The notes under the pieces are model-generated. The model searched no databases and was not told the origin of the DNA. It was given only the letters and a program-made list of their open reading frames with translations. The translations under genes were made by a program, and so were the position numbers. Shown in pieces: positions 8,801 to 60,861 of a stretch of DNA of 64,000 bases. The DNA is from Octopus sinensis (Eukaryota). Numbering within the stretch: the first letter of the stretch is position 1; every line of letters begins with the position of its first letter. Location: the NCBI RefSeq assembly GCF_006345805.1, contig NC_042998.1:58714001-58778000 (forward strand). The letters are read 5' to 3'.

Positions 8801-11800
8801 GATGAATATTTCTCTCTCCCCACTATTTCTTTTATTATACAAATAGTGTAAACATCATCCAGTGTATCCTTCTCTTTTTCTTAAGTCCTCTGTCTGAATT
8901 TAACATAATTTGGCAACAGTCTATAGCAGGTGAAAGGGTTACAGAATTAACACTGGTTATAGGAACATAATTCTTTTTCCATGAAATGATAGCTTAAACT
9001 GTGCTCTAAATTGAGGTGTACTCAAATCCTATTTTATGGACTCAATCATGTTCTAAAATAAGTTGAAAGGTAAGCTACTATAAATCGGTACAAACTTTCC
9101 AGACAACCCAATATATATGCGCACGTGCACACACACACACACACACATGGTGTGTGTGCCTTGTTGTCTTGGCTTTGCAAGGTTGTCTTAATAAGTAGGA
9201 AAGCAGACAAATCACAAATCCCTTGAGGTAGATGGCCCTGCTCGATCTATAGAAATGGCATAGGTAGAAACTCCATAAGATGTACCCAGTGTAAGCTATG
9301 GACACACATAAAAGATGCAGCAATATCAAAGGAAGGCAAACTGGGAAGATAGTTTTTGTGTGTGGCGAATGCTCAGTGGCAATAAACACTGAAAATGTGC
9401 AGAAAACGGTTTGTTTGCCAGAGGGAAAAACTAGAAGTAATTGATAGCTTCTGTTACCTAGGTGACCAAGTCAATATTGGGGGTGGATGCTCTGAGTGTG
9501 TAGCTGCAAGAATAAGAATAGCCTGGCTAAAGTTCAGAGAGCTCCTACCAGAGTAAAAGGTAGACTGTATGATGCATGTGTGTGAATAGCCATGCTACAT
9601 GGCAGTGAAACATTAGCCTTGACCACTGAGGACATGTGTAAGCTTGCAAGAAATGAAGCTAGTATGCTCTGCTAGATGTGTAATGTCAGTGTGCATAGAT
9701 GACAGTGTAAGTGCCCTGAGAGAAAAGTTGGACATAAGAAGCCCCAACAAGCCAAGTCAGACCATAACTCTGGCCTATGCCAGTGCAACATAACTGGCCC
9801 ATTTAAGAGTACCATTCAATCATTGGGCAATAAACTGTGCTTGTGAAGACCTGTTGAGTCAAGTGAAGTCATTGTCATGGCCGACGCCAGTAACGCTTAA
9901 CTGGCACCCATCCCGGTAGCATATAAAAAGCACCATTTGAGCATGGTCATTACCAGTGCTGCCTAATTGGCTCCTGTGCTGGTGGCATGTAAAAAACACC
10001 CACTACACTCTTCGAATGGTTGGTGTTAGTAAGGGCATCCAGCTGTAGAAACCTTGCCAGATCAGACTGGAGCCTAGTACAGCCTTCTGGCTTGCCAGTG
10101 CTTAGTCAAACCATCCATCACATGCTAGCATGGAAAGTGGATGTTAAACGACGACGATGATGATGGGCTTCTTTCAGTTTCCATCTACCAAATCCACTCA
10201 AAGTTTTGATCAGCCTGAGGCTCAAGGTACCACACAATGGGACTGAACCCAGAAACATTTGGTTGGGAAGCAAGCTTCCTGCCACACAGCTGTGCCTGTG
10301 CTTATGTACAAATTCTTTTTGCAAGGTTTCTATTCTTATGCCAATGTTCATTAAAAAAAGTATTTTTATGTCTTTTAAGACTTGGAGCGTCATGCAGCAA
10401 GAGTCCTCTTATTGGAATACACTGGCAGTGGGTCTACTGAAGAAAATGTCTATCTTGTTGGAAAGGTATTTTTATTATTTCATTATTAGCAGTTGTGTTG
10501 CTGAATACTTTAGTTTGGGATTTATTTGTATCAAATTTCTATGAAATAAGCTTTTCAGTGCTCCCAAATTATGGTTGAAGTTTGTAGGAAAAGCTAAACA
10601 AAAATGTAAAGAAACCCCAAAATATAGCATAAAAAACAGCTGTTTCTATGAGGTAGGTTGCCACAATTATTGAATTTGACTGCTCAATTAAGGTTGTTCT
10701 TCTTCACATGCTCTTGCCCAACCATATATATACATACACAAATAGATACATACAATAACACTTCACTTTACTAGGACCCACTGTACGAGACCCTGGGTTT
10801 TGAAATCAAAATCAAATTCGATGACTGGCATCCGTGCTAGTGGAGTGCTAAGAGCACCATCCGAGTGTGATCGTTGCCAGAGCAGCTTACTGGCTTCTGT
10901 GCTGGTGCAGCGCTAAGAGCAGCATCCGAGTGTGATCGTTGCCAGAGCAGCTAACTGGCTTCTGTGCCAGTGGCATGTGAAAAGTACCATTCGAGTGTGA
11001 TCGTTACCAGCGTCACCTTACTGGCACTTGTGATGGTGGCATGTGAAAAAACATTTGAGCGAGGTTGTTGCCAGTGCCGCTGGACTGGCTCCTGTGCAGG
11101 TGGCACATAAAAAGCACCATCTGAACGTGGCTGTTGCCAGTACTGCCTGACTGGCCTTCGTGCCAGTAGTATATAAAAGCAACCACTATACTCTTGGAGT
11201 GGTTGGCGTTAGGAAGGGTATCCAGCTGTAGAAACTCTGCCAGATCAGATTGGAGCCTGGTGCAGCCATCTCGTTCGCCAGACCTCAGTCAAATCGTCCA
11301 ACCCATGCTAGCATGGAAAGCGGACATTAAGCGATTATGATTGATGATTTTACAATAGATATAAGAAGATTAAACAACCATTTTGTGTGTGTGTCGCAAC
11401 ATTGCAACATGTTGCAACACTGGTTCTGATGCATCTACACAGCTGCACATAGCAACGGAATAAAAGCTTCTAAGCAAACAACTCTAGACTTGGTTTTTAA
11501 AAAGAAATCTACTAGTCTGTTTACAAGTGCTTGTGAATTGGTGATCACGTCTACAAGTGATGGTGTCTAGTGCAAGTGAAAGTGATTCAGAAAACGATTA
11601 TAATAATACATTATTTACATTTGACGGATATTTGTCCTCATCTTGTTTGTTGTTAACATAACATTTCGGCCAATATACCCTCCAGCCTTCATCAGGTGTC
11701 TTGGGGAAATTTCAAATCTGGGTTCTCATTACTAAGGTATTATTATTATTGTTTTTATTCAGGTCACTGCTTGGAATCGAACTTGGAATCTTGGGGTTAG

Positions 11801-18200: not shown

Positions 18201-21200
18201 CCCAGCTCAAATAAAAGAAGTACATGTAAGATACTGAAATCAGTCTGGGCAACCATGTCTTGCTTTTATAAAAGCTTTACATTGTATTGAAAGAAACACA
18301 TTTTCTGATTCAATAGTTACTGCTATGTTTTCTCTATTTTTTACCCTTCAACACTTTGAAAGTTACTCCACTTTTATGTTTTTTATCTCTGCAGGCGGTC
18401 ATGGATAATGGCCCAGCCAAGAAGAAGAAGATGTCTCAAACTCTCCAGGATGTTGGACATTCAATTGGAGATTTATTTGAAATTTCAAACATTCGCCGTG
18501 AGGTAAAATTTTATCCATCTTATCATCTTCGTTCCTTCCACTGGGGCAAAAAAAAAAATGGTATCAGCACTCTTCTCCTATTTCAGCTAAAAGAAGAAAA
18601 CCTAACAAAAACCTTTCAGTTTCCACAGTGCTCCTTTTAGACTTCAGTTGTTTTTAGTTTTTTTTTTTTTCATAAGTTAGTCTTGGTGGACAGGAGTGGT
18701 GTTCATCACTCTTATACATCCTCTAAAACTGCTAAAACTGTTGCAGTCGCTACTTAACTTGAATATCTGCTATGTGCTGTTCTATAGGAAAGCTGTGAAT
18801 AGAGTGGGAACCAGTGTCTTGTTCAAATGCTAGATTAGAGTATACTGTTAAAGGCACCCAAAGATCAAGTAGAGGTGTTGAACCTGGAAGCATGTGAGAT
18901 GTAGACTGTCTACGTTGTATAAAGAATTCTGTATTGAAATAATTTGAATAATTTCACAGTCACAAGAACCCATGAATTTTGGGTTTCGTCTAGGCTATCT
19001 AATCACTGCCTACTCTCTAAACTAGACTGGTACATTTAGTTTACTCATCCAGGAAGAATGAAAAGCATGAAAAGGCAAGGATGTTGCTTCAAATAAGATT
19101 TTTAGTGATGGTCATTGATGGGTCCAGTTTCTGCCTTAGTTACTCAACTCTAAGCTTTTTGTTTGTTCCTTCTCGAACCACGCCTGTCTCATAAGGGCCG
19201 GTTTCCTTGGCGTATAGGTTCCCCATCTGGATGGGACACCGATCCATCGCAGGTGATCTGCAAGATGCAGGAGGAAAGAGTGAGAGAAAGTTGTGGTGAA
19301 AGAGTCAGTAGAAGTTCGCCATTACCTTCTACTGGAGCCGCGTGGAGCTTAGGTCATTCGTTCATAAACACACACATTGCCCAGTCTGAGATTCGAACCC
19401 GCGACCCCTCAACTGCGAGTCCATTGCTCTAACCACTAGACCATATGCCTCCACAACTCTAAGCTAGAAAAATGTGACACTTTAGAAATATTTGATTTCC
19501 TAACTTAACATTGTTGTTTTCCTTTTTCTGTTCTCTTTGATCAAAGATCAGAAGTTTGTGATTTGGTGTCAGCTTTGTTACACCAAATAATTTTATCTCT
19601 TTTAAATTTAAGCCTCTTTGGCCAGTCACAAAATTGCACAAAACAGTGCCATGAAGTATGCAAAGGTTGTTTTGTCAGCAAAATAAACATCAGTGTATTT
19701 TGCTTAGTTCGATTTGTTGCTCTAATATTTTCATTAATCCCTTGGGGATCATGGGCACAATATTTATCTTTTTGGATTCTGAAGCATCAGAACTTACTCT
19801 GAAATTCTAGTACTGGTTCCTAATAAAATGCTTAATTCAAAAGATATAAAATGCATGCTTTTGCATGTACCTTTCTGTTAAGAACTACCAGCTGCAAGTT
19901 CCAAGTTCAAAAGTATAGCCATCAATTGGTACAATGAATTGGATCCAGCTCACTGTGCTAAATAATGGGAAAAATATATAATTTTAGAGTATTTTATTTG
20001 CTTGGATTGGTGACATTGAATGTTAGTCTGCAGAGAGTACCAACAAACCTCCTCCTATTATAGTCAGTGGTTGACAGATTTATATTTTGATGGGGATAGA
20101 CCTGCCATCTGAGAAGACCTGCAAAACCTGTGAAAACTTTTGATATCCTCAGACTAAATAATGCTTCTGAATTAGGCACAAGGACAACAATTTTGAAGAC
20201 AACTGTTGCCATTGAATCCTGTGATAGAATGGTATTTTGTTTTACCAATCTTGGTGGAGTGAAAGTCAAAATTAATTTCAATGGTATTAGAACTTAGAAT
20301 ATAAAGATTAGGAAGAAATACCACTAACCATTTTGTGTGACTCTAATGATTTTGCCAGTCCACCACCTATGATAATAATAATGGTTTCAAATTTTGGCAC
20401 AAGGTCAGAAAGTTGGTGGGAGGAGTAATAAAGAAATAGGTATTTTGCCTGTTGCTACATTCCAAGTTCAAATTCTGCAGAGGTCGACTTTGCCTTTCAT
20501 CCTTTTGGGGTCGATTAAATAAGTACCAGTTATGAAAGGTGAAAGGCAAAGTTGACCTCTGCAGAATTTGAACTGCTAGCATGGGTTGGACGGTTCGACC
20601 GGGGATCTGGGAAGCCAGAAGGCTGCACCAGAGCCTGGTGCAGCCTTCTGGCTTCCCAGATCCCCGTCGAACCGTCCAACCCATGCTAGCATGGAGAACG
20701 GACGTTAAACGATGATGATGATGATGATGAATGTAGCAACAGGCAAAATACCTATTTCTTTACTACCCACAAGGGGCTAAACACAGAGGGGACAAACAAG
20801 GACAGACAAATGGATTAAGTTGATTACATCGACCCCAGTGCGTAACTGGTACTTATTTAATCAACCCCGAAAGGATGAAAGGCAAAGTCAACCTTAGCGG
20901 AATTTGAACTCAGAATGTAACGGCAGACGAAATACGGCTATGCATTTCACCTGGCGTGCTAACGTTTCTGCCAGCTTGCCGCTAAGCATTTTGTCTAGCA
21001 GGCTAACAATTCTGCCAGCTTGCCGCCTTATTATTATTAATAATAATAATGATGATGATAATTTTTTCTACTCTAGGCACAAGGCCTGAAATTTTGTGGG
21101 GAGAGGGCAACTGGTAGCTTATCAACTCTGAAAGGATGAAAAACAAAGTCGATCTCTTTAGAACTTGAACTTGGAATGTAGCAATAGGCAAAATACTGCA

Positions 21201-24069: not shown

Positions 24070-27000
24070 ACAATAATAATAATATGAGGGAATATTATTC
24101 CAAACTTACAGGGAAAAATTCAATTTAGAAATATTAAATCAAATTTCACCAAATATAATATATATATATATATATATATAAATTTTATATATAGAATTAG
24201 GAAAAAACACCTTTTATCAATTCAATAATGAAAAATGAAATTATACCATCTAGAAAAATTACATCTTATAGAAAAATTAAATATAAGATAAAATATATAA
24301 CAATGATTAAGTAATGTGCAAAATAATGAATAAAACGTATATAATATATTTATTATTTTGCACATTACATAATCATTGTTATATATTTTATCTTATATTT
24401 AATCTTTCTATAAGATGTAATTTTTCTAAATGGTATAATTTAATTTTTTATTATTGAATTGATAAAAGGTCGTTTTAAGCACCAACCAATCATGGCCGTT
24501 GCCGGCCTACCCTGGTACCTGTGCCTGTTGCACCTAAAAACCACCATCCTTCTGTGGCCGATGCCAGCGCCGCCTTGACTGGCTTCCGTGTCGGTGACAC
24601 GTAAAAACCACCAACCGATCGTGGCTGTTGCCAGCCTCCCCTGGCACCTGTGCCAGTGGCACATAAAAAGCACCATCCGTACGTGGTCTATGCCAGCGCC
24701 ACCTTGATTGGCTTCTGTGCTGGTGGCACATAAAAAGCACTAACCGATTGTAGCCGTTGCCAGCCTCCCCTGGCACCTGTGCCGGTTGCATGTAAAAAGA
24801 ACCCACTACACTCATGGAGGGGTTGGCGTGAGGAAGGGCATCCAGCTGTAGAAACACTGCCAGTCGGACTGGAGCCTGGTGCAGCCTCCTAGCTTCCCAG
24901 ACCCTGGTCGAACCATCCAACCCATGCTAGTATGGAAAACGGACGTTAAACAACATGATGATGATGATATATATATATATAAATACATATATATATACAT
25001 ACATATATACGATGGGCTTCTTTCAGTTTCTGTCTACCAAATCCCCTCACAAGGCTTTGGTCGGCCCGAGGCTACAGTAGAAGACACTTGCCCAAGTCGC
25101 CACACAGTGGGACTGAAACCAGAACCATGTGGTTGGGAAGCAATTTCTTACCACATAGCTTTTGGTTAAAAAAAAAATGGGGCTAATGATTTCAGTCTCA
25201 CTATTATACAGGGGAAACTGATAGCCATGGGTACAACCCCTCTTCCAGACCCAGCAAATAAAAATGCAAAACAAACCAAAAATAAAAATGAAAAAAAAGT
25301 AGCCCAAGTAAAGTCTTTTGATGCTATATTTCATTTGTTTCCATTACCAGGATTATAGCTTCCATGCCGGTAAATCTGAATATGAAGACGTTCTTCAGTG
25401 TAACAATTTACCATCTTCTCAGACACCAAGAGGTCACCAGACACCAGCTGCATTCCTTATTTTAGCATCAGGAATGGACAAAGTAAGTTAACATCAATAA
25501 TATTGAACATCTTGCCAGTTCAAATTTATTTCATGTTGATTTTGTTTATTTTATTTTTTACTACAAAGAAATTAAGCTGTTTTCTTAATTATCGCTTTAA
25601 GTCTGAAATAATTGGCAGTGGCTTAAATTTCTTTGTTTCTTTATTTACTGCTGTTGTTTTTGTCTGTTTGTTTGTGGCCATATATATTATTGAGCCCACT
25701 TATCAGTAACTGTCTATATTTCTGCCTCTCTGTCTGTCTGTCTGTCTCTGCCTGCCTGCCTGTCTTTTTGTGTGCCTGACTGTCAGTCCGTCCATCCATC
25801 CATCCTTCCTCTTTAATTCCATTTACATCCGTTAATCTAGGTTATCAGTTCAAATTTTATGAAGGTCAGCCTTTTCTTGTACCCATCAAGTATTAGATTC
25901 CATTGATTATATAGTTCACCTACAAATTTTGGCTGTTCTGCCAAAATTAGAAACCATCATTATAACAGTTTATAAATATAATAGACCTTAATCCACTTAG
26001 TCACTTAAAAACATATCCTTTAGTTTTGTTTAATGATTTTCTCTGTGATGGCTTGTCATCTGCAGCCCCAAGGAGCCTGAATACTTTCAACACTTTTTCT
26101 GTAAAATAGTTACAATTATCATAAAGCCAATTGGTTTAATTATATCTGTTTGTTACTACTTCAGTTTTTAATAATGGGCAACTGTGTTATTCAGTCTCAA
26201 CATCACCATCATTTAATGACTGCTTTCTATGCTAGCATGGGTTTGACAGTTTGACTGGAGCCATTAAAGCCATGGGTTGCACCAAGCTCCAGTTGTCTTT
26301 TCTGACATGGTTTCTGTATGTGGATGCTTTTCCTAATGCAAACCACTTCAGAGTGTAGTGGATGTTTTCAGTATGAGCCCAGCATGAGTGCTTTTTATGT
26401 GGCACCAGCACCAGTATCAATTCTACTGTGGTGGACAGGTCTTCTTCTGTACAGCAATGCACCAGATATCTCTATCCTTAGTTGTCTCTTGTATAAAGCT
26501 CAGTGTTTTGAAATTGGCTTTCAATACTTGAAATATGTAGCTTTGTTTCAAAGTGGTAAAAATAAAAATGAGAATAATAAGAGCTGTAAGAATTAATAAA
26601 CTTAGAGAATGTGAAATAATTCTCTTTTGGAATAGTGGATCTTGAAGCACAAATCAAGCTATAAATAATAGCATGAAAATATTGGGTTCAAAAACCAATT
26701 TGAATAGAAGGGAGGGGCTAAGTCAATAAGATTTACACTGGTGTTCAACTGGTACTTAATTTATTGACCCCGCTCGATAATAATGATAATAAATGAAAAA
26801 AAACCCAGATCTATAGGGATGTTTTGTATATGTGTGTGTGTGTATGTGCATTTGTATGTATGTGTGTGTGTACATGCATTTCTATGTATGTGTATGTCTG
26901 TATGTACATTTGTATGTATGTGTATGTCTGTATGTGCATTTTTATGTATGTGTGTGTATGTGCATTTTTATGTATGTGTGTATATGTGCATTTGTATGTG

Positions 27001-33775: not shown

Positions 33776-33835
33776 ATATGTATATATATATATTTCTTTA
33801 CTACCCTCAAGGGGCTAAACACAGAGGGGACAAAC

Positions 33836-33895: not shown

Positions 33896-35255
33896 TATCT
33901 CACAGAAGTATGTACACTCAAAAAAAATTTCAGTAAAATTGCCATTACTCTGATTATAGCGGAGGAAATCAAATGAAATTTATGCTGAATAAAATATATT
34001 ATTTATGCTAGCATTATACAAATTTGGAACACAAAACAATGAAGATTTTCAAAGATATGAACGAAATATTAACTTTCAAAAGTTACAAAAATATGTACAC
34101 CCTAAGGGAAATTTGCTATATTTAATGTTTTGTCCACTTTTTATTAATTAAATTCAAATATTGTCGATAATTTCAATTCTAATAAATTATTTCTCCCGGC
34201 ACTTTTGCACTGGTGGTTGTTATTGCATCTGCAGGAATTCTGATTCGTGTATCGTGGTGGAAATCTTCATTGTCATTAAAACGGCACCACAACTAAAAGA
34301 ATTGTCTGACGATTTAAAGAAAATTATTTTTACTTTGCACAAGAATTGTTTCGGATACAAGTTAATTAGCAGACGAATACATATTAGCGTAAACGTAGTT
34401 GACAAAGTTATTCAGAAGTACAAAGCTATTGTACGGCTAAGCAATAATCATCGCCCGAGTCGTCCATCTATTTTAACAGCACGTGATATTCTTTTCTACT
34501 CTAGGTACAAGGTCTGAAATTGTGGGGGGGGGGGACCAGTCGATGAGGTCGATCCCAGTGCACAACTGGTACTTAATTTATTGACCCCGAAAGGAGGAAA
34601 AGCATAGTCGACCGCGGCGGAATTTGAACTCAGAACGTAAAGACAGACGAAGTACCTATTTCCTTACTACCCACAAGGGGCTAAACACAGAGAGGACAAA
34701 CAAGGACAGACACACGGATTAAGTCGATTACATCGACCCCAGTGCGTAACTGGTACTTATTTAATCGACCGCGAAAGGATGAACGGGAAAGTCGACCTCG
34801 GCGGAATTTGAACTCAGAACGTAGCGGCAGACGAAATACCGCTAAGCATTTCGCCTGACTTGCTTATGTTTCTTATTTCTTTATTGTCCTCAAGGGGCTA
34901 AACATAGAGGGGACAAACAAAGACAGACAAAGGGATTAAGTCGATTACATCGACCCCAGTGCGTAACTGGTACTTAATTTATCGAACCCGAAAGGATAAA
35001 AGGCAAAGTCGACCTCGGCGGAATTTGAACTCAGAACATAGGGACAGATGAAATACCTATTTCTTTACTACCCACAAGGGGTTAAACACAGACGGGACAA
35101 ACAGACAGACAAACGGATTAAGTCGATTACATCGACCCAGTGCGTAACTGGTACTTAATTTATTGACCCCGAAAGGATGAAAGGCAAAGCCAACTTCTGC
35201 AGAATTAAATACCGTCAAGCATTTCGCCCGGCGTGCTTACGATTCTGCCAGCTCG

Positions 35256-35318
<63 letters not shown>

Positions 35319-35330
35319 TATATGTATGTA

Positions 35331-35402
<72 letters not shown>

Positions 35403-36477
35403 TGTATGTATGTATGTACGTACGTCTTCACTGCGCGTGATGTTCACCACATCCAACGTTGCGTGATGGACCACAGGCGTCGTACCGCTTCATCTTTGGT
35501 CCAAGAAGTATCTTCTGTTAGTGGAAAGAGTGTATCCGCTCAAACAGTTCGCCGAAGCTTGAACCAGTGTGGTCTTCATGGACACATTCCTCGTAGGAAG
35601 CCTCTCCTCCCTACCAGGCATAAATCAAGTCGTCTTTCTTTTACCGAAACCTATGTGAGTAAGGAGAAGAAGTTTTGGAATAAAATTCTTTTTGCTGATG
35701 AAACTAAAATCAACTTGATTGGGTCAAGTGGTGTTAAATGAGTATGGCGATGGCCAGGGGAAGATAATAGCGACAAACATACTGTACCTACCGTGAAACA
35801 CAGTGGCGGAAGTTTTATGCTTTAGGGATGCATGAGTGCAACTGAAGTCGGAGGACTCACATTTATTGAGAGAACAATGGATTCAGGGCTTTATTGTGAC
35901 ATATTGCAGTAAGCAATGTTGAAAAGTATCAAGGAACTAGGAAGACATTCCTTGTTCCAATGACCCTAATGACTCTAAACACACTTCAAAGATGACAACT
36001 AAGTTTTTATCAGATAAAAAGGTTAAGGTGTTGCCTTGGCCTATCATGTCATCTGATTTAAACCCGATGGAGCATCTTTGGGGTGTTTTGAAAAGAAAAG
36101 TTGAGGAGAAAAAATCTTGCAATGTAACACAGCTGAAAGACATTATTTAGGATGAATGGAGGTCGATTTCATCGGTTATATGCAAAAATTTAGTCGACTC
36201 TCTGCCCAGAAGACTTAATGTAGTCATTGAAAGCAAAGGCAGTCACACCAAATATTGAATATAGCAAATAATGCTTTAGAGTGTACACATTTTTGTATCG
36301 CTTGAAAATTAATATTTCGTTCATATCTTTGAAAATGTTTAATGTTTTGTGTTCCAAATATGCATAATGATTGCATGTATAATATACTTTATTCAGTATA
36401 AGTTTCGCTTGATATATTTCGATAATGACAATTTTACTGAAATTTTTTAGGGGTGTACATACTTCTGTGAGATACTG
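33893..36477 (+). mobile_element. Tc1 (DD34E) element with long IR/DR-type TIRs, interrupted
   Basis: TA-CAGTATCTCACAGAAGTATGTACAC at both ends; ~210-bp diverged TIRs with an inner direct repeat; transposase KELSDDLK..., [24 protein letters not shown] (36258), with stops. Confidence 0.92.
34491..35258 (-). mobile_element. head-to-tail array of family C SINE units inside the Tc1
   Basis: Repeated units with tails at about 34658, 34875 and 35059. Confidence 0.85.
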
Positions 36478-40972: not shown

Positions 40973-42214
40973 TCAGGCTGAGTAAAAGGTAAACAACGTT
41001 TTGAAACATGAAATTCATCACAATATATTTCAACAATGTGGAAATTTTATTCATCGAAGTAAGTACCATTATAACCAACACATTTTTGGCAACGAGTTAC
41101 AAGTTTGTTTACTCCAGTAGCATAAAAATTTGGAGTTCTGAAGCTGATGAACTCTTTAAACTCACTTTTAGCATCGGTTTGACTTTTGAAGTCCTCTCGC
41201 AGGAAATCATCAAGGTGCTTGAGAAAGTGGTAGTCGGTAGGAGAAAGTTCTGGGGAATAAGCTGGGTGGGGAAGAACTTCGTGGCCAAGTTCCCTCAATT
41301 TCTGGAGCGTCATTAGTGAAACATGTGGTCGAGCATTGTCATAAAGAATGATTGGCCCTCTTCTGTTGATCAGTTTGCGACGGAGGAGTAGCAGTTTTTC
41401 GTCCATTTTGGCAATTTCATGCCAAAATGTTTCTACAGTAATTTTTTTCCGGGTTTTTAGTTACAGTGGATGAGTCCAGCAGTATACTACCAAACAGTCA
41501 CCATAACCTGCTTTTTGAAGAGCTCGGATTTAAGGAAGGTTTTCGGTACTTCATTTTGGTCCAACCACTGCGACGAACGTTTTTTATTATTGTACAGAAT
41601 CTTTTCAACGCAAGTTACAATGCGGCCGAGAAATGGATCGGTCTGGTTACGGATTTTCTGATTTTCATTCAAATCGTATGATACCCATTTGTCGAACTTT
41701 TTTGATTTTCCGATCGCATGTAAATGGTTGCAGGCAGTTTTCTGGCTAACTTGAATTTCTTTTGCGAATTCTCAAGTGGTTTTACGTGGAACTTTCTCGA
41801 TGGCGGTCTTTAATTGACCGTCATTAATGACAGATGGGCGTCCACTGCGCACACGATCTTCAAGGCTCAGGTCTCCACCGCGAAATCGTTTAAACCAGTT
41901 TCCAGATGACCACCCACTGGTCATTTCCTCACCAAACGTTTCGTTGATATAGCGAGTAGTTTCAGCTGCCTTACATCCTTTTTTTGAAATTGACTAGCAA
42001 AATTTCTCGAATATCGCACTTTGACGGAGCTATTTCAGATGATTGTAACAACGGTGAAAAAATATCAATGTCAATCCATTAATGCATTTGAGCAAGTTTA
42101 TGTCTGTATTATCAGCCAATTGTAAAACACATGTTCAAAAGAAATTCAAAACTATAAAAATCCGGTACAAATTCTTTATGATTCAAAACGTTGCTTACCT
42201 TTTACTCAACCTGA
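40973..42214 (-). mobile_element. full-length mariner (DD34D) with disrupted transposase
   Basis: TIR TCAGG(C/T)TGAGTAAAAGGTAA, TA flanks, ~1.24 kb; RIVTC.EK.ILY, YDNARPH, HPAYSPELSPTDYH. Confidence 0.92.
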
Positions 42215-56099: not shown

Positions 56100-57230
56100 T
56101 GTTCATGACTTCTTGCCAATATTCCTTTAGCTCTTCAATTGTCAATGTATTAGTGGTAGAAATCACCGGGTTTTGACACAAAGAATTCATGGAGCAACGT
56201 TTTCAGCTCAACATCGTTGAATGTAATATCTCGAAGACTGTTGGAGAGTGACCGTAAAAGGTAATAGTTTGAAAGTGCTATAGCAAGAGAATACACTGGG
56301 TACAGAATTCTTGAATAGCAATTTTGGTTAAATTAGCGACGTAGGGGTCAGTGTTATCGCGTTGAAGCATGTCTTGTCGCTGGTCAGATCGTTTTAGCTT
56401 GATTGCCTCGTTGAATCGGTGCATTTGCTGACCACGTTGTTGCTTTTAAGCTTTTCGTAGTAGATTAGCCATTTTTAATCCCATCAAACGCAGATCTCAC
56501 TTGGCATGAGGTGTTGTCTATTTGTCGGAACTCAACCATCAACGTAAATACACCATTTTTATCGCCGGTAACGATGCGGAAAATAAATCACTTTCATCAG
56601 GAGTAGGTTGGCGTCAAGCAAACTTGTGTAGGAGAGCTAAAATTTATCTCCTTCATTCAAAGCGTATTGCACCCATGCACCGAATGTTTGAACCTTACCT
56701 ATCGACTGACGGTGACGGGTGAAGGTATCATGAGAGCATCCCATCCGCTGGGCCATTTCCCTTGTGGAATGGGTTGGATACTCGAGGATAAGCTCGTTCA
56801 ATTGGTCTTCATTGGATTGAACAGAGTGACCAGAAATGGAGAAATTGTGAGAACTAATTTCCATTCTTTGAAGAAGGAAAACCATTTTTATACAGCTCTT
56901 TAAGTAATAGCACCTGATTTTGTACAAAGACCTGTTTTGTCTCAAGCGGCTTTGGCAGTTTTGGAACCTTGGTTGAAAGCGAAAAAAGCAGGTACCAAAA
57001 ATGTTCATTTCTTTCTACTTGGCACTCCATCGTCTGATAAAAGTCCATAAGTCTGATAAAAAAGGTAAAACTTCTCAAATTTCAAAAACAATAAACAAAA
57101 GTTGTAAAGGTAGAATAAAGCTACAGAAACAAAAACAACAAACAAAAACATAAAACACTACGATAAAAATATTTTTCGTGTTAATTCAAATACCATTGGA
57201 AATAAACCAACGAATTTATCTGACAGCCAT
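56100..57230 (-). mobile_element. decayed mariner element
   Basis: STREMAQRMGCSH...IGKVQTFGAWV (WVPHEL-like motif); boundaries approximate. Confidence 0.7.
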
Positions 57231-58052: not shown

Positions 58053-58572
58053 ATCTTTATATATATAAAACAGAGAATGTGTGTCTGTGTGTGTGTTTCC
58101 CTAAAACTTGAGAACTACACAACCAATTTCATTCAAATTTTACACATGCCTTACTTAGGGTCCGGGGAGTGTCAGCGTAGGGCAAGCCCACTGCAATATC
58201 ATATCTTCTCCACTACGATTCCCTAAAACTTGAGAACTACACAACCGATTCCATTCAAATTTTACACATGCCTTACTTAGGGTCCATGTAGTTTCATGGG
58301 CAAAAAATGTTCAACTTCTTGCCTAGAGCGAGCCCATAACAATATCATATCTTCTCCACTATTTCAGTATTACGTGTTAAAAGTGAAACAAAAACGTTTC
58401 TCTATTTTATGTCAGATACTTTCACATTAACAATAAAAATAATAATAACAATTGAATTATATGTAGTAAGTAATAATTAAAATCAAACTAAAGTAACATA
58501 ACAAAAGTAAAAATAGCAATTGGTATAAAATTGCATCAATGATTTGAACTTGAATAAGTGGTTTCACATGAA
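58053..58572 (+). mobile_element. non-autonomous Helitron-like 5' part with internal ~125-bp tandem duplication
   Basis: Starts TCTTTATATATATAAAA like the 5' end of 62083-62456; repeat unit ttccctaaaacttgagaactacacaacc at about 58097 and 58219. Confidence 0.55.
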
Positions 58573-58688
58573 TGGGAATAAATTAAAAATAAAATTAGCG
58601 TGCAGAAATGGAATAGTCCAGATGGATAATATAAAATTAAATTAAAGAAAAGACTATTGTCTATAAAGTATGTAATGTAGAGAAAAAA

Positions 58689-60367
58689 GGTCGCGTTTTT
58701 TTTGCGCTCTGTAAAATTCGGTTAAAAAAGAAAAAAGAACAAAAAGTGAATTGTGGTTGCGGAATTGGAACGTCGTTTGGTGCGGTTTCGCGTCGCACTG
58801 GTTCTGTGCGTCACACGTTTTCTGTTCGGGAGGCCGTTTTTCGGTCTGAGGCGACTATGAGCCGCCTCTACCAAACGGATGAGATGGAAGGGAGAAATTT
58901 CTCTGAAAATTCGTCGACATCTGAGGAGGAGTTGGCGGTGAAAAAAATGGAAAGCACCTACGCAGGTATAACGAAGAAGTCAACAGAAAAAGAGATAGAC
59001 CTGGCTAAGTTGACGGACTTCCAGGAGTTCATGAAGGAGGAGGAGAACGGAGAGGTTGAGCTGTTGCCTCTAGCAGGGCGCGGAGACTGGTTCCATCGTA
59101 GAACCATTAAATATAAAGTATTTATGAATGGAGGTAGAAAAATGGAAGTGTTTAACATGGAAGCAATTGAAGAGGCTTTCAAACAGACAGGAGAAGAAAT
59201 TGTGTACATGACAAAAGGATTAGAATATGGAACCATAACGGTACAATTTAAAAGTGAGAAAGCAGCCAGGAATATAGCAGCCAAGGTGGTGAGTACAGAA
59301 AAGTTTTACTTGTTCCCCTCGTATCTGAATATAAGGACCACCAGAATTAGGGTGGAAGGAATACCTCCACACCTAGAGGGCGAATTAATAACGGCTGCGG
59401 TTATCAAAGGAAATGAAGATAAAGTGGACATCCTCCACGCCATTATGAAATATGAAGGCGTGAGAGGTGCTACACTAGTGATGAACATACAGACGGAGGC
59501 GGAAGTTATAGAAAAGCTTACGGACAGTATAAAAACTGGAAATATTATTATGAGAGTGTGGGTGGAGGGTAGGGCGCCCAGGTGCTACAAGTGTGGCCTG
59601 AGGGGTCACATAAGAGCCTACTGCCCTCCCCCACCAAAGGAAAAAGAAAAGGAAATCGTCGCGGAAGCCCCAAAAGAGGAAGAAACCAAAGAGAACCAAA
59701 CGGAAAAAGAAACGACAGAAGAAGAGGAGATGCAACAAGAGTGGGAAGAAGGAAGAAAAAAGAGAAAAAGAAAGAAAAAGAAAAACTGTGCGAAGCCCCA
59801 ACCCACCCCAACACCACCCGCACCCTCTGAATCCCACCCTCCCCCTGCAGACAGTGAACCCACCCGCTCCCCTCCAACAAGAAAACAAAAGAAAAATAAT
59901 AATACATACAGACAAGTGTTTGAAAACGAACCCAGGCCGAACATTTATATTGTGACTGAACAGAAAGAGGTTGAAAGGGTAATGGAGGAGTATGAATGGT
60001 ATCAAATGGATGGGACCAGATATGCAGTGCTGGAAAAGAAGAATATAGATGAGTTTGTGTTGAGGTGTGAAAGGGAGAATTGGGAGGTGAAAGATACAAG
60101 AATGAGCGATGAATTCGTGGAATATATGGAGGACAGTTTCGGAGTAAGAATGGATATGGATGGTCTTCGTATTGGGAATGAACATTCAGGTGACAGTGAA
60201 AACAAAAGGACAGATAAGTGATGCTGGCGGAGGGGGCCGTTAGCATCGCTTTCATATTATCATTTTTTCATTTTCATTTGCTCATAAATTTAATCATATT
60301 GTTCTATGTCCCCCATGTTTTGTTATGTCCGCCATTCTTCGTGGCCCCTGGTGGGTAATAAAGAAAT
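58689..60367 (+). mobile_element. ORF1-only non-LTR retroelement (HAL1-like organisation)
   Basis: CpG-rich 5' leader, single intact ORF, short 3' UTR ending GCCCCTGGTGGGTAATAAAGAAAT; no ORF2. Confidence 0.75.
58857..60221 (+). CDS. gag-like / LINE ORF1 protein with CCHC zinc knuckle (454 aa from first ATG)
   Basis: Uninterrupted ORF; VEGRAPRCYKCGLRGHIRAYCP (CX2CX4HX4C), then acidic, basic (RKKRKRKKKK) and Pro-rich tracts. Confidence 0.85.
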   Translation: MSRLYQTDEMEGRNFSENSSTSEEELAVKKMESTYAGITKKSTEKEIDLAKLTDFQEFMKEEENGEVELLPLAGRGDWFHRRTIKYKVFMNGGRKMEVFNMEAIEEAFKQTGEEIVYMTKGLEYGTITVQFKSEKAARNIAAKVVSTEKFYLFPSYLNIRTTRIRVEGIPPHLEGELITAAVIKGNEDKVDILHAIMKYEGVRGATLVMNIQTEAEVIEKLTDSIKTGNIIMRVWVEGRAPRCYKCGLRGHIRAYCPPPPKEKEKEIVAEAPKEEETKENQTEKETTEEEEMQQEWEEGRKKRKRKKKKNCAKPQPTPTPPAPSESHPPPADSEPTRSPPTRKQKKNNNTYRQVFENEPRPNIYIVTEQKEVERVMEEYEWYQMDGTRYAVLEKKNIDEFVLRCERENWEVKDTRMSDEFVEYMEDSFGVRMDMDGLRIGNEHSGDSENKRTDK

Positions 60368-60861
60368 AACATGGAGGAAAGTACCTTCGAAAAGTGTCTT
60401 GGTGCGACTATGAAAGGTATCTAATCAGAGGCGGTAAATTCGCCACAATAGAAGCAAGGTTCGAGTCAACGGAACGTGCAAGGGAGTACTCGACTCGAAC
60501 TTGCAAAGTGGAAATATTATATTTTTACCTTTATATCTGGGACGTAGGACGTCCCGGAAAAAAATTTTTAATGCACCCCCCCCCCCAGAAGTAGCGCTAG
60601 GCTGGATTGTAGCCACACTTCTATACAAGAGGGAGGACAAGATACAATTGATCGAAATTACAAGAGACGGGCTAACAATTCCAGTCTGTTATATATTTTG
60701 AGTATTGATATCACTAGCGATATCAAGATATAACTTTGTATTTTGTATTTTATGTGTAGATGTGTATATATAGATGTACATGTAATATGTACACATATAT
60801 ATATACGCATATATACATGCACTAGCACTATGACCCGGCAACGACGGGTCTTTAATGCTAG

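Follow-up and report, generated by a model that had tools for sequence, protein, structure and literature searches.

Does an intact ORF1-type reading frame that stands alone in the genome of Octopus sinensis belong to a mobile family, to a host gene or to one deleted copy of a longer element? The frame lies in the window analysed here, that is, the whole stretch of 64,000 nucleotides at positions 58,714,001 to 58,778,000 of contig NC_042998.1, and a first-pass annotation made from the letters alone had read it either as a young family resembling HAL1 or as a domesticated gag-like gene. HAL1 (half-L1) elements of mammals are described as non-autonomous, coding for ORF1p only and needing ORF2p in trans; they arose more than once and kept their ORF1 coding capacity for long (PMC5753468, PMC3627910). 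Our results show that the family reading stands and the gene reading does not, and that the first-pass annotation overlooked a fixed site of insertion in a Helitron, an autonomous partner, sibling ORF1-only families and their arrays.

Results

The window copy and its family

The element, called family A here, occupies positions 58689..60368 of the window (+ strand, 1680 bp). It starts with a CpG-rich 5' leader, or head (58689..58856; 17 CpG, observed/expected 1.97 vs 0.57 for the whole window), which at other loci is itself an insertion site for sibling families. The head is followed by the intact ORF1 of 454 aa (58857..60221, from the ATG at 58857 to a stop that ends at 60221) and by a 3' UTR (60222..60368) whose terminal ~45-nt tail is common to the sibling families and to autonomous elements. 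The stop-free frame and the CpG-rich leader had both been annotated correctly, as had the 3' UTR with its AATAAA (60357), but the latter is 147 nt long instead of 146 and ends at 60368 instead of 60367, where no poly(A) tail is present. The 5' boundary at 58689 was also well placed: it is the 5' end of the family and was recovered as an exact junction 52 times genome-wide, a count that takes in sibling families with the same head. As annotated, no endonuclease or reverse transcriptase (RT) follows ORF1 in the window, where the right arm of a Helitron comes next, and this frame is the only long intact transposon ORF. Among 38 frames of at least 120 aa it is the sole long non-repetitive sense ORF, the others being microsatellite frames, antisense frames of family A and short transposase relics. 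Four short frames (41047-41460, 56637-57014, 34152-34517 and 35181-35741) are broken, and we take them to resemble relics of mariner/Tc1 transposases. The window also contains a G+C-rich minisatellite with a 62-67-bp unit in three arrays (2733-2943, 10824-11121 and 24477-24803).

Family A has at least 73 copies, a lower bound from exact genome-wide matches to a 35-nt tail pattern. At the DNA level, a search of the same genome gave 839 candidates, of which the 40 scored yielded ~40 near-full-length matches at 90-100%. Copies diverge pairwise by 1.2-1.3%, and an ORF of at least 445 aa is intact in 13/62 near-full-length copies. By its own terms, the first-pass annotation would be refuted if other copies ran on into ORF2, which would make this locus a one-off internal deletion. 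A motif that A has in common with its closer siblings occurs 394 times in the genome, and at the first 30 of these group-I ORF1 loci by coordinate no endonuclease was found within 1.5 kb (0/30); in the autonomous elements T and T2 described below, the endonuclease lies ~0.7 kb past the same motif. The shared tail ends 29 of these 30 loci, 757-840 bp on. With at least 73 copies and 0/30 reaching ORF2, a one-off deletion is ruled out, and a young family of the HAL1 kind, its members ~1.3% apart, is what remains of the original proposal.

The ORF1 protein

In an alignment of 15 ORF1s with 20 invariant columns, the CCHC zinc knuckle formed by C243, C246, H251 and C256 (residues 243-256, 59583..59624) is invariant in 15/15. 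The Pfam zf-CCHC match to family A ORF1 is weak (E 0.078, under its cut-off), and there is no Pfam match to Transposase_22. A structure model with the 15 ORF1s as input (mean pLDDT 64.7, pTM 0.41, core blocks mostly 80-88) places two alpha/beta domains ahead of the knuckle and a further, small one C-terminally. Alignment and model together predict a conserved core of two tandem RRM-like domains (~residues 83-240, 59103..59576), then, past the knuckle, a disordered linker rich in acidic, basic and proline residues and a small alpha/beta C-terminal domain (~residues 360-440, 59934..60176). The top Foldseek matches are tandem-RRM proteins (IMP3, Sex-lethal and HuR), at E 2e-5 to 1e-4 and target TM-scores of 0.45 or less. 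The modelled protein fits a type I ORF1 (RRM-like plus CCHC) and not the mammalian L1 type; type I ORF1s have been linked with the Tx1 clade in animals (PMC5203782).

Homologs of this protein occur in other octopods. A word-index protein search returned three Octopus vulgaris proteins and a profile search gave 1902 matches with E no higher than 0.001, zinc-knuckle repeats among them; among ten profile matches looked up, six came from O. vulgaris, O. bimaculoides, O. sinensis and Argonauta hians. One O. vulgaris homolog (P0005) is annotated as 'EPM2A-interacting 1-like', which is probably a transposon ORF mis-annotated as a host gene.

Across 10 ORF1-only pairs with finite dS, dN/dS was 0.09-0.25 (A vs B was saturated), measured between families and not within one host-gene locus; these ratios indicate that the ORF1 core is under purifying selection in two ORF1-only lineages. 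An intact ORF with a selected core is also what a domesticated gag-like RNA-binding host gene would display. However, family A is no single conserved and immobile locus of the L1TD1 kind: its copies are dispersed, 49/62 are broken, and some are 5'-truncated and flanked by target duplications. The window copy itself has two near-identical sisters on other contigs, both broken, and selection seen between families is what a mobile lineage predicts. We regard domestication as extremely improbable.

The Helitron target

The repeat that flanks family A is a non-autonomous Helitron with 5' TC and 3' CTAG ends and a 3' hairpin, lying between A and T. Its left arm (58054..58688, + strand) begins with TC after an A and finishes with ~50 bp that form the first part of a dead, captured ORF1 fragment. 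The right arm (60369..60861, + strand) carries the remainder of that fragment to ~60670, the hairpin (60832-60850) and the CTAG end followed by T. Among 30 empty Helitron loci, 26 have the 5' end motif and 26 the 3' subterminal hairpin, the latter nearly always followed by CTAG and T; the hairpin has a z of -6.05, with equally stable shuffles in 0/200. By tblastn, the dead fragment is a piece of ORF1 from the retroelement group to which A belongs (5/5 empty copies, E down to 1e-8), and the insertion target falls inside it. A ~120-bp internal duplication in the left arm (58098-58340) varies in copy number between loci.

Empty sites read GATTTGAAC directly followed by ACATGGAGGAAAG, a sequence with 353 exact matches genome-wide. 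In the window, the downstream half of the target, ACATGGAGGAAAG, was located at 60369..60382 (+ strand) by the empty-site match and the tail survey, and the 9-12 bp ending in GATTTGAAC that are present at empty sites are missing at the 58688 junction. A blunt insertion with GGTCGCGTTTT retained as the empty site was rejected, since that sequence has 0 matches and the real empty site has GATTTGAAC. Contigs from four runs, presumed to be RNA but possibly not, cover the 3' part and include both empty and filled junctions, a pattern that is uninformative about transcription.

The tails of family A are almost confined to this site: 67/73 lie in the Helitron, 66 of them directly before ACATGG-type sequence, and the first bases past the tail are AC in 72/73 and ACA in 71/73. 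The tail is followed by the Helitron right arm in 41 cases, by a sibling head starting ACATG-like in 25 and by a repeated left-arm piece in one, and six tails lie outside the Helitron. In work on Tx1 elements, a target preference was recognised where more than 20% of flanks fell in one repeat type (PMC4494074); family A exceeds this share, and so does T, whose long ends lie directly before a Helitron right arm in 7/8 cases. In a coordinate-ordered sample of 30 right arms, 17 were empty, 4 were preceded by an A tail and 9 by the tail of another family. At L158 and L260, older units of greater divergence form an array that includes a third autonomous-like element (76% to T). The junctions in this array begin 8-10 nt upstream of the ACATGG site, which suggests that the cut position in the Helitron shifted over time.

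Independent insertion and marks of reverse transcription

Full-length A copies mostly have one and the same 5' junction, with the 9-12 target bases lost (52 places; 39/62 near-full-length copies), target duplications are absent at these fixed-junction sites, and the Helitron ends are intact around the window copy. Such uniformity would follow if one or a few insertions had taken place and rolling-circle transposition of the Helitron had then copied the composite. However, where insert and arms were compared at the same loci, the divergence of the arms was 2.5-4.5 times that of the insert. Mean divergence was 1.3% for A copies and 3.6% (left, n=24) and 6.2% (right, n=15) for their own Helitron arms; in empty Helitrons it was 3.8% for the left arm and 7.8% for the right, after four near-duplicate empty loci were dropped. 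The A copies in this set were picked by likeness, and the comparison was repeated on nine coordinate-ordered copies, which differed by 1.2%, with 1.45% for the insert vs 4.9% for the right arm at five loci. A tree built from 14 filled and 20 empty Helitrons, star-like with 2/31 branches starred, has the filled copies interspersed with the empty ones: 11 changes of the filled label are required vs a shuffled mean of 11.1, and a single clade of filled Helitrons appears in 0/200 bootstrap trees. As the filled Helitrons predate their insert and do not group together, the insertions are independent. Furthermore, loci differ in which of A, B, C, D, F, G and T they combine, and truncated copies with duplications lie outside the Helitron. 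Copying of a composite is thus most unlikely and largely refuted already. Divergence from the majority sequence is 0.76% for family A and 1.9-4.0% for the Helitron arms, which on the approximate scale of JC 0.09 per 25 My given in the literature (PMC13282606) would correspond to rough ages of about 2 My and 5-11 My, respectively.

Family A has spread by retrotransposition, as seen from its fixed 3' end, 5' truncation and target duplications. All six off-target copies are 5'-truncated 3' fragments of 34-325 bp between 16-18-bp direct repeats starting ACA, while shortening by more than 100 nt affects 2/67 on-target copies (Fisher p 2e-7, or 5e-6 if six are counted). Copies with the rarer junction, class J2, group together on the element tree (4 changes vs 6.8; 1/500 shuffles), and the two-T upstream variant of this class has only one exact empty site; the main class, J1, is not clustered (17 changes vs 19.0). 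The clustering of J2 and its upstream variant suggest that, by pairing with the upstream arm, the cDNA end may carry the donor junction over, in the manner proposed for R2 and SINEU (PMC4494074, PMC6530143). A more uniform left arm in filled copies, as a donor-derived flank would give, was not clearly seen over its last 30-120 bp.

The near absence of shortened copies on target and their donor-like junction are unusual for target-primed reverse transcription (TPRT). They would accord with homing at the DNA level, in which a partner endonuclease nicks the empty site, gene conversion from a filled copy follows and reverse transcription makes only the truncated off-target copies. However, a co-converted flank is not apparent in the left arm, whose last 30-120 bp are not clearly more uniform in filled copies, and the arrays are locus-specific mosaics. 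Lone copies of T, F and G at the same Helitron site also keep the upstream target intact. Homing therefore appears very unlikely to us.

Autonomous partners and sibling families

Element T (5.2 kb), found in the arrays examined, has ORF1, endonuclease, RT and zf-RVT, with an unbroken ORF2 of 1132 aa at 2/12 further loci, and ends in the same ~45-nt tail as A. T2 is a second autonomous family, 81% to T (copy at L149:1550-6915); its ORF2 has human L1 ORF2p as best PDB match (E 1e-60; R2 1e-22). The best-scoring informatively named homolog is 'Transposon TX1 uncharacterized 149 kDa protein' (32% identity, an automatic label). Their predicted N-terminal APE, L1-like RT and C-terminal zinc finger place T and T2 in the L1 clade in the wide sense. 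Family A ORF1 matches the ORF1s of T and T2 (tblastn E 1e-31) at a core identity of only 34-37%, and no autonomous parent with an A-like ORF1 was present at the 30 group-I ORF1 loci. A T-type element that shares the Helitron target is the likely helper of A. The cues conflict, however: the target of A is that of T, but A is nearer to T2 in its head and last 12 nt, and the one T2 copy examined lies at a SINE site.

At least seven ORF1-only families have the ~45-nt tail in common with T and T2. Their cores form two groups (8 and 3 rows, support 100/100), each far from the autonomous ORF1s, a set of four in which one was assigned from context only. No conserved stem-loop was found in the shared tail, which forms a 4-bp stem only (-4.4 kcal/mol, a value without shuffle control). 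T2 and family B insert at one SINE-head site, between C and AGAAACG, with 11-15-bp duplications and in arrays of 4 to 9 or more units (L146-L152), and the heads of both contain a small ACGTCA...TGACGT inverted repeat. Lone family D copies (L153, L156, L157 and L187) lie at unrelated sites, all four with G after the tail, and have duplications of 19-22 bp at the two loci where the 5' end was read. The tail motif occurs five more times in the window, all on the - strand (20754-20776, 33792-33814, 34658-34680, 34875-34897 and 35059-35081), where 0 were expected. It lies within an abundant SINE-like repeat, upstream of GTTCAAATTCC, which we take to be B-box-like (L111-L113, L120, L126, L128, L131, L136 and L138), and may be an old truncated-tail insertion that was fixed in a SINE master copy.

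Arrays

Head-to-tail arrays occupy the space between one left and one right arm, with 11 units (18.7 kb) and 10 units (21 kb) among the arrays listed, in which the order is mixed but usually runs from C/B/D to A and then to F/G/T. Arrays of B and C are also found at SINE sites. The position in the A head at which a preceding tail joins depends on the family: +18 for D (3 loci), +4 for C (4 loci), +15 for F/H (2 loci) and +5 for B (2 loci). At two loci, a locus-specific target variant is repeated on either side of T. D-A or C-A dimers that move as one unit were rejected, as A copies with an upstream sibling are scattered (14 changes vs 13.7). Some units start with variable lengths of left-arm sequence right after the preceding tail, a pattern that speaks for arrays arising in a single event, with the RT jumping from the end of one RNA template to the next, as reportedly happens with R2. 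However, the joining base in the A head varies with the incoming family, and the local variant flanks T on both sides; both observations favour successive targeted insertion. Template jumping, which concerns array building only and may operate alongside our preferred explanation, is unlikely. A separate region (69532287-69556450; G000:C1, L195-L206) spans 24 kb and contains an array of at least 12 units of families F and G, with heads that start CCACGG and not ACATGG.

Discussion

Our results make it highly probable that family A is an ORF1-only, non-autonomous element of the Helitron site which spreads by TPRT, using ORF2p of a partner in trans and its own ORF1 in cis. This explanation rests on observed copy number, fixed ends, a fixed target, empty sites and independent insertion, as well as on truncated copies with duplications, the shared 3' tail and purifying selection on ORF1; from these, we infer the identity of the helper, expression and the RNA-flank mechanism. 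Mobilisation in trans by ORF2p, with ORF1p supplied in cis, is suggested by the tail and target that A shares with T and by the dN/dS ratios. The RNA of a donor copy would begin in or near the Helitron left arm and be packaged by the predicted RNA-binding ORF1p. The partner ORF2p would then bind the shared tail and nick right before ACA(TGG). At the Helitron, the cDNA end could pair with the upstream arm, which would give a full-length copy with the donor junction and without duplication, whereas elsewhere a truncated copy with a 16-18-bp duplication would result. As the target would survive insertion and heads would also serve as targets, later insertions could build the head-to-tail arrays.

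A more far-reaching reading is that the system is a self-made safe harbour with an RNA-encoded memory of its target, donor flanks on both ends of the RNA setting the landing base. A Helitron would have taken up part of a Tx1-type ORF1 and carried it to hundreds of sites, which a guild of autonomous and ORF1-only retroelements would now exploit. The endonuclease would matter less than the donor flank for the exact landing base, so that one tail could serve different homes: ACATGG for A, the SINE AGAAACG for B and fixed bases of the A head for D and C. We hold this reading only tentatively and consider it rather improbable; if true, it would describe a natural RNA-steered, full-length APE-type integrator that accepts passengers of 1.7-1.9 kb in trans.

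HAL1 is among the closest known systems. Family A resembles it in being non-autonomous and coding for ORF1p only, in keeping ORF1 coding by selection and in the homology of its ORF1 to the ORF1 of an autonomous L1-clade element. Further parallels are an origin on more than one occasion and a probable dependence on ORF2p in trans. Mammalian HAL1 has a poly(A) tail. In the strict mammalian sense, with a type II Transposase_22 ORF1 and poly(A), A is not a HAL1: its ORF1 is of type I, its 3' tail lacks poly(A) and is common to the partner, and it has a strict target site, tandem arrays and a mollusc host. We conclude that A, much like HAL1, is a rider on a Tx1-type system, here one whose target is another transposon.

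The HeT-A, TART and TAHRE elements of Drosophila form head-to-tail arrays at telomeres, where a gag-only element stands beside RT-coding partners. The octopus system likewise combines an element of the gag-only type with RT-coding partners in mixed-family head-to-tail arrays. Unlike theirs, these arrays are not at chromosome ends (the window is at 58.7 Mb of a 208-Mb contig and copies are spread through contigs) but interstitial, at hundreds of Helitron and SINE sites and with target duplications. The elements are L1/Tx1-type and not jockey-type, and there is no sign of a host function.

Members of the Tx1 clade are described as targeting other transposons, such as Tx1L in the piggyBac Tx1D, Tx1-Mar in Mariner-N4_AMi and Tx1-9_AMi in Harbinger, and also LTR elements, with SINEU as non-autonomous riders and with tandem insertions (PMC4494074). 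Shared features are the L1/Tx1-type APE-RT partner, the fixed site in a non-autonomous DNA transposon, riders with the same target, tandem insertions, and target duplications and deletions. Here, however, insertion is into a Helitron, at a site within a dead ORF1 fragment that stems from the retroelement group itself, the riders are protein-coding half elements of two deep lineages, and arrays reach 11 units or 21 kb. R2 and R1 are described as co-transcribed with target flanks (PMC6530143, PMC4494074), and the octopus elements have similarly precise 3' junctions without poly(A) and fixed 5' junctions, as expected if an RNA flank anneals to the target. Unlike in R2 and R1, flank annealing is read here from junction patterns alone, and the target is a dispersed transposon and not rDNA.

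The literature searched contained nothing on ORF1-only Tx1-type riders, a Helitron target or an octopus system of this kind, though Repbase or Dfam may list some of the families. A 2026 repeat annotation of O. vulgaris reports 13 recently active L1-Tx1 families, and the terms 'ORF1', 'target' and 'nested' are absent from its main text. Each part of the system has a precedent; the combination was present in none of the papers searched.

With these findings, the known range of ORF1-only half elements comes to include a mollusc and a target-specific system of the L1/Tx1 type, and Helitrons join the list of retroelement targets. They also describe a nested dependence, in which a retroelement fragment captured by a Helitron has turned into a landing pad. 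The two separate lineages under strong ORF1 purifying selection support the idea that ORF1 acts in cis and ORF2 can be borrowed, and A with its partner offers a natural helper/passenger pair for testing that idea. That nearly all on-target copies are full length is relevant to the formation of 5' junctions and to site-specific RNA-based gene insertion. In octopods, finally, intact ORF1s of the family A kind get annotated as host genes.
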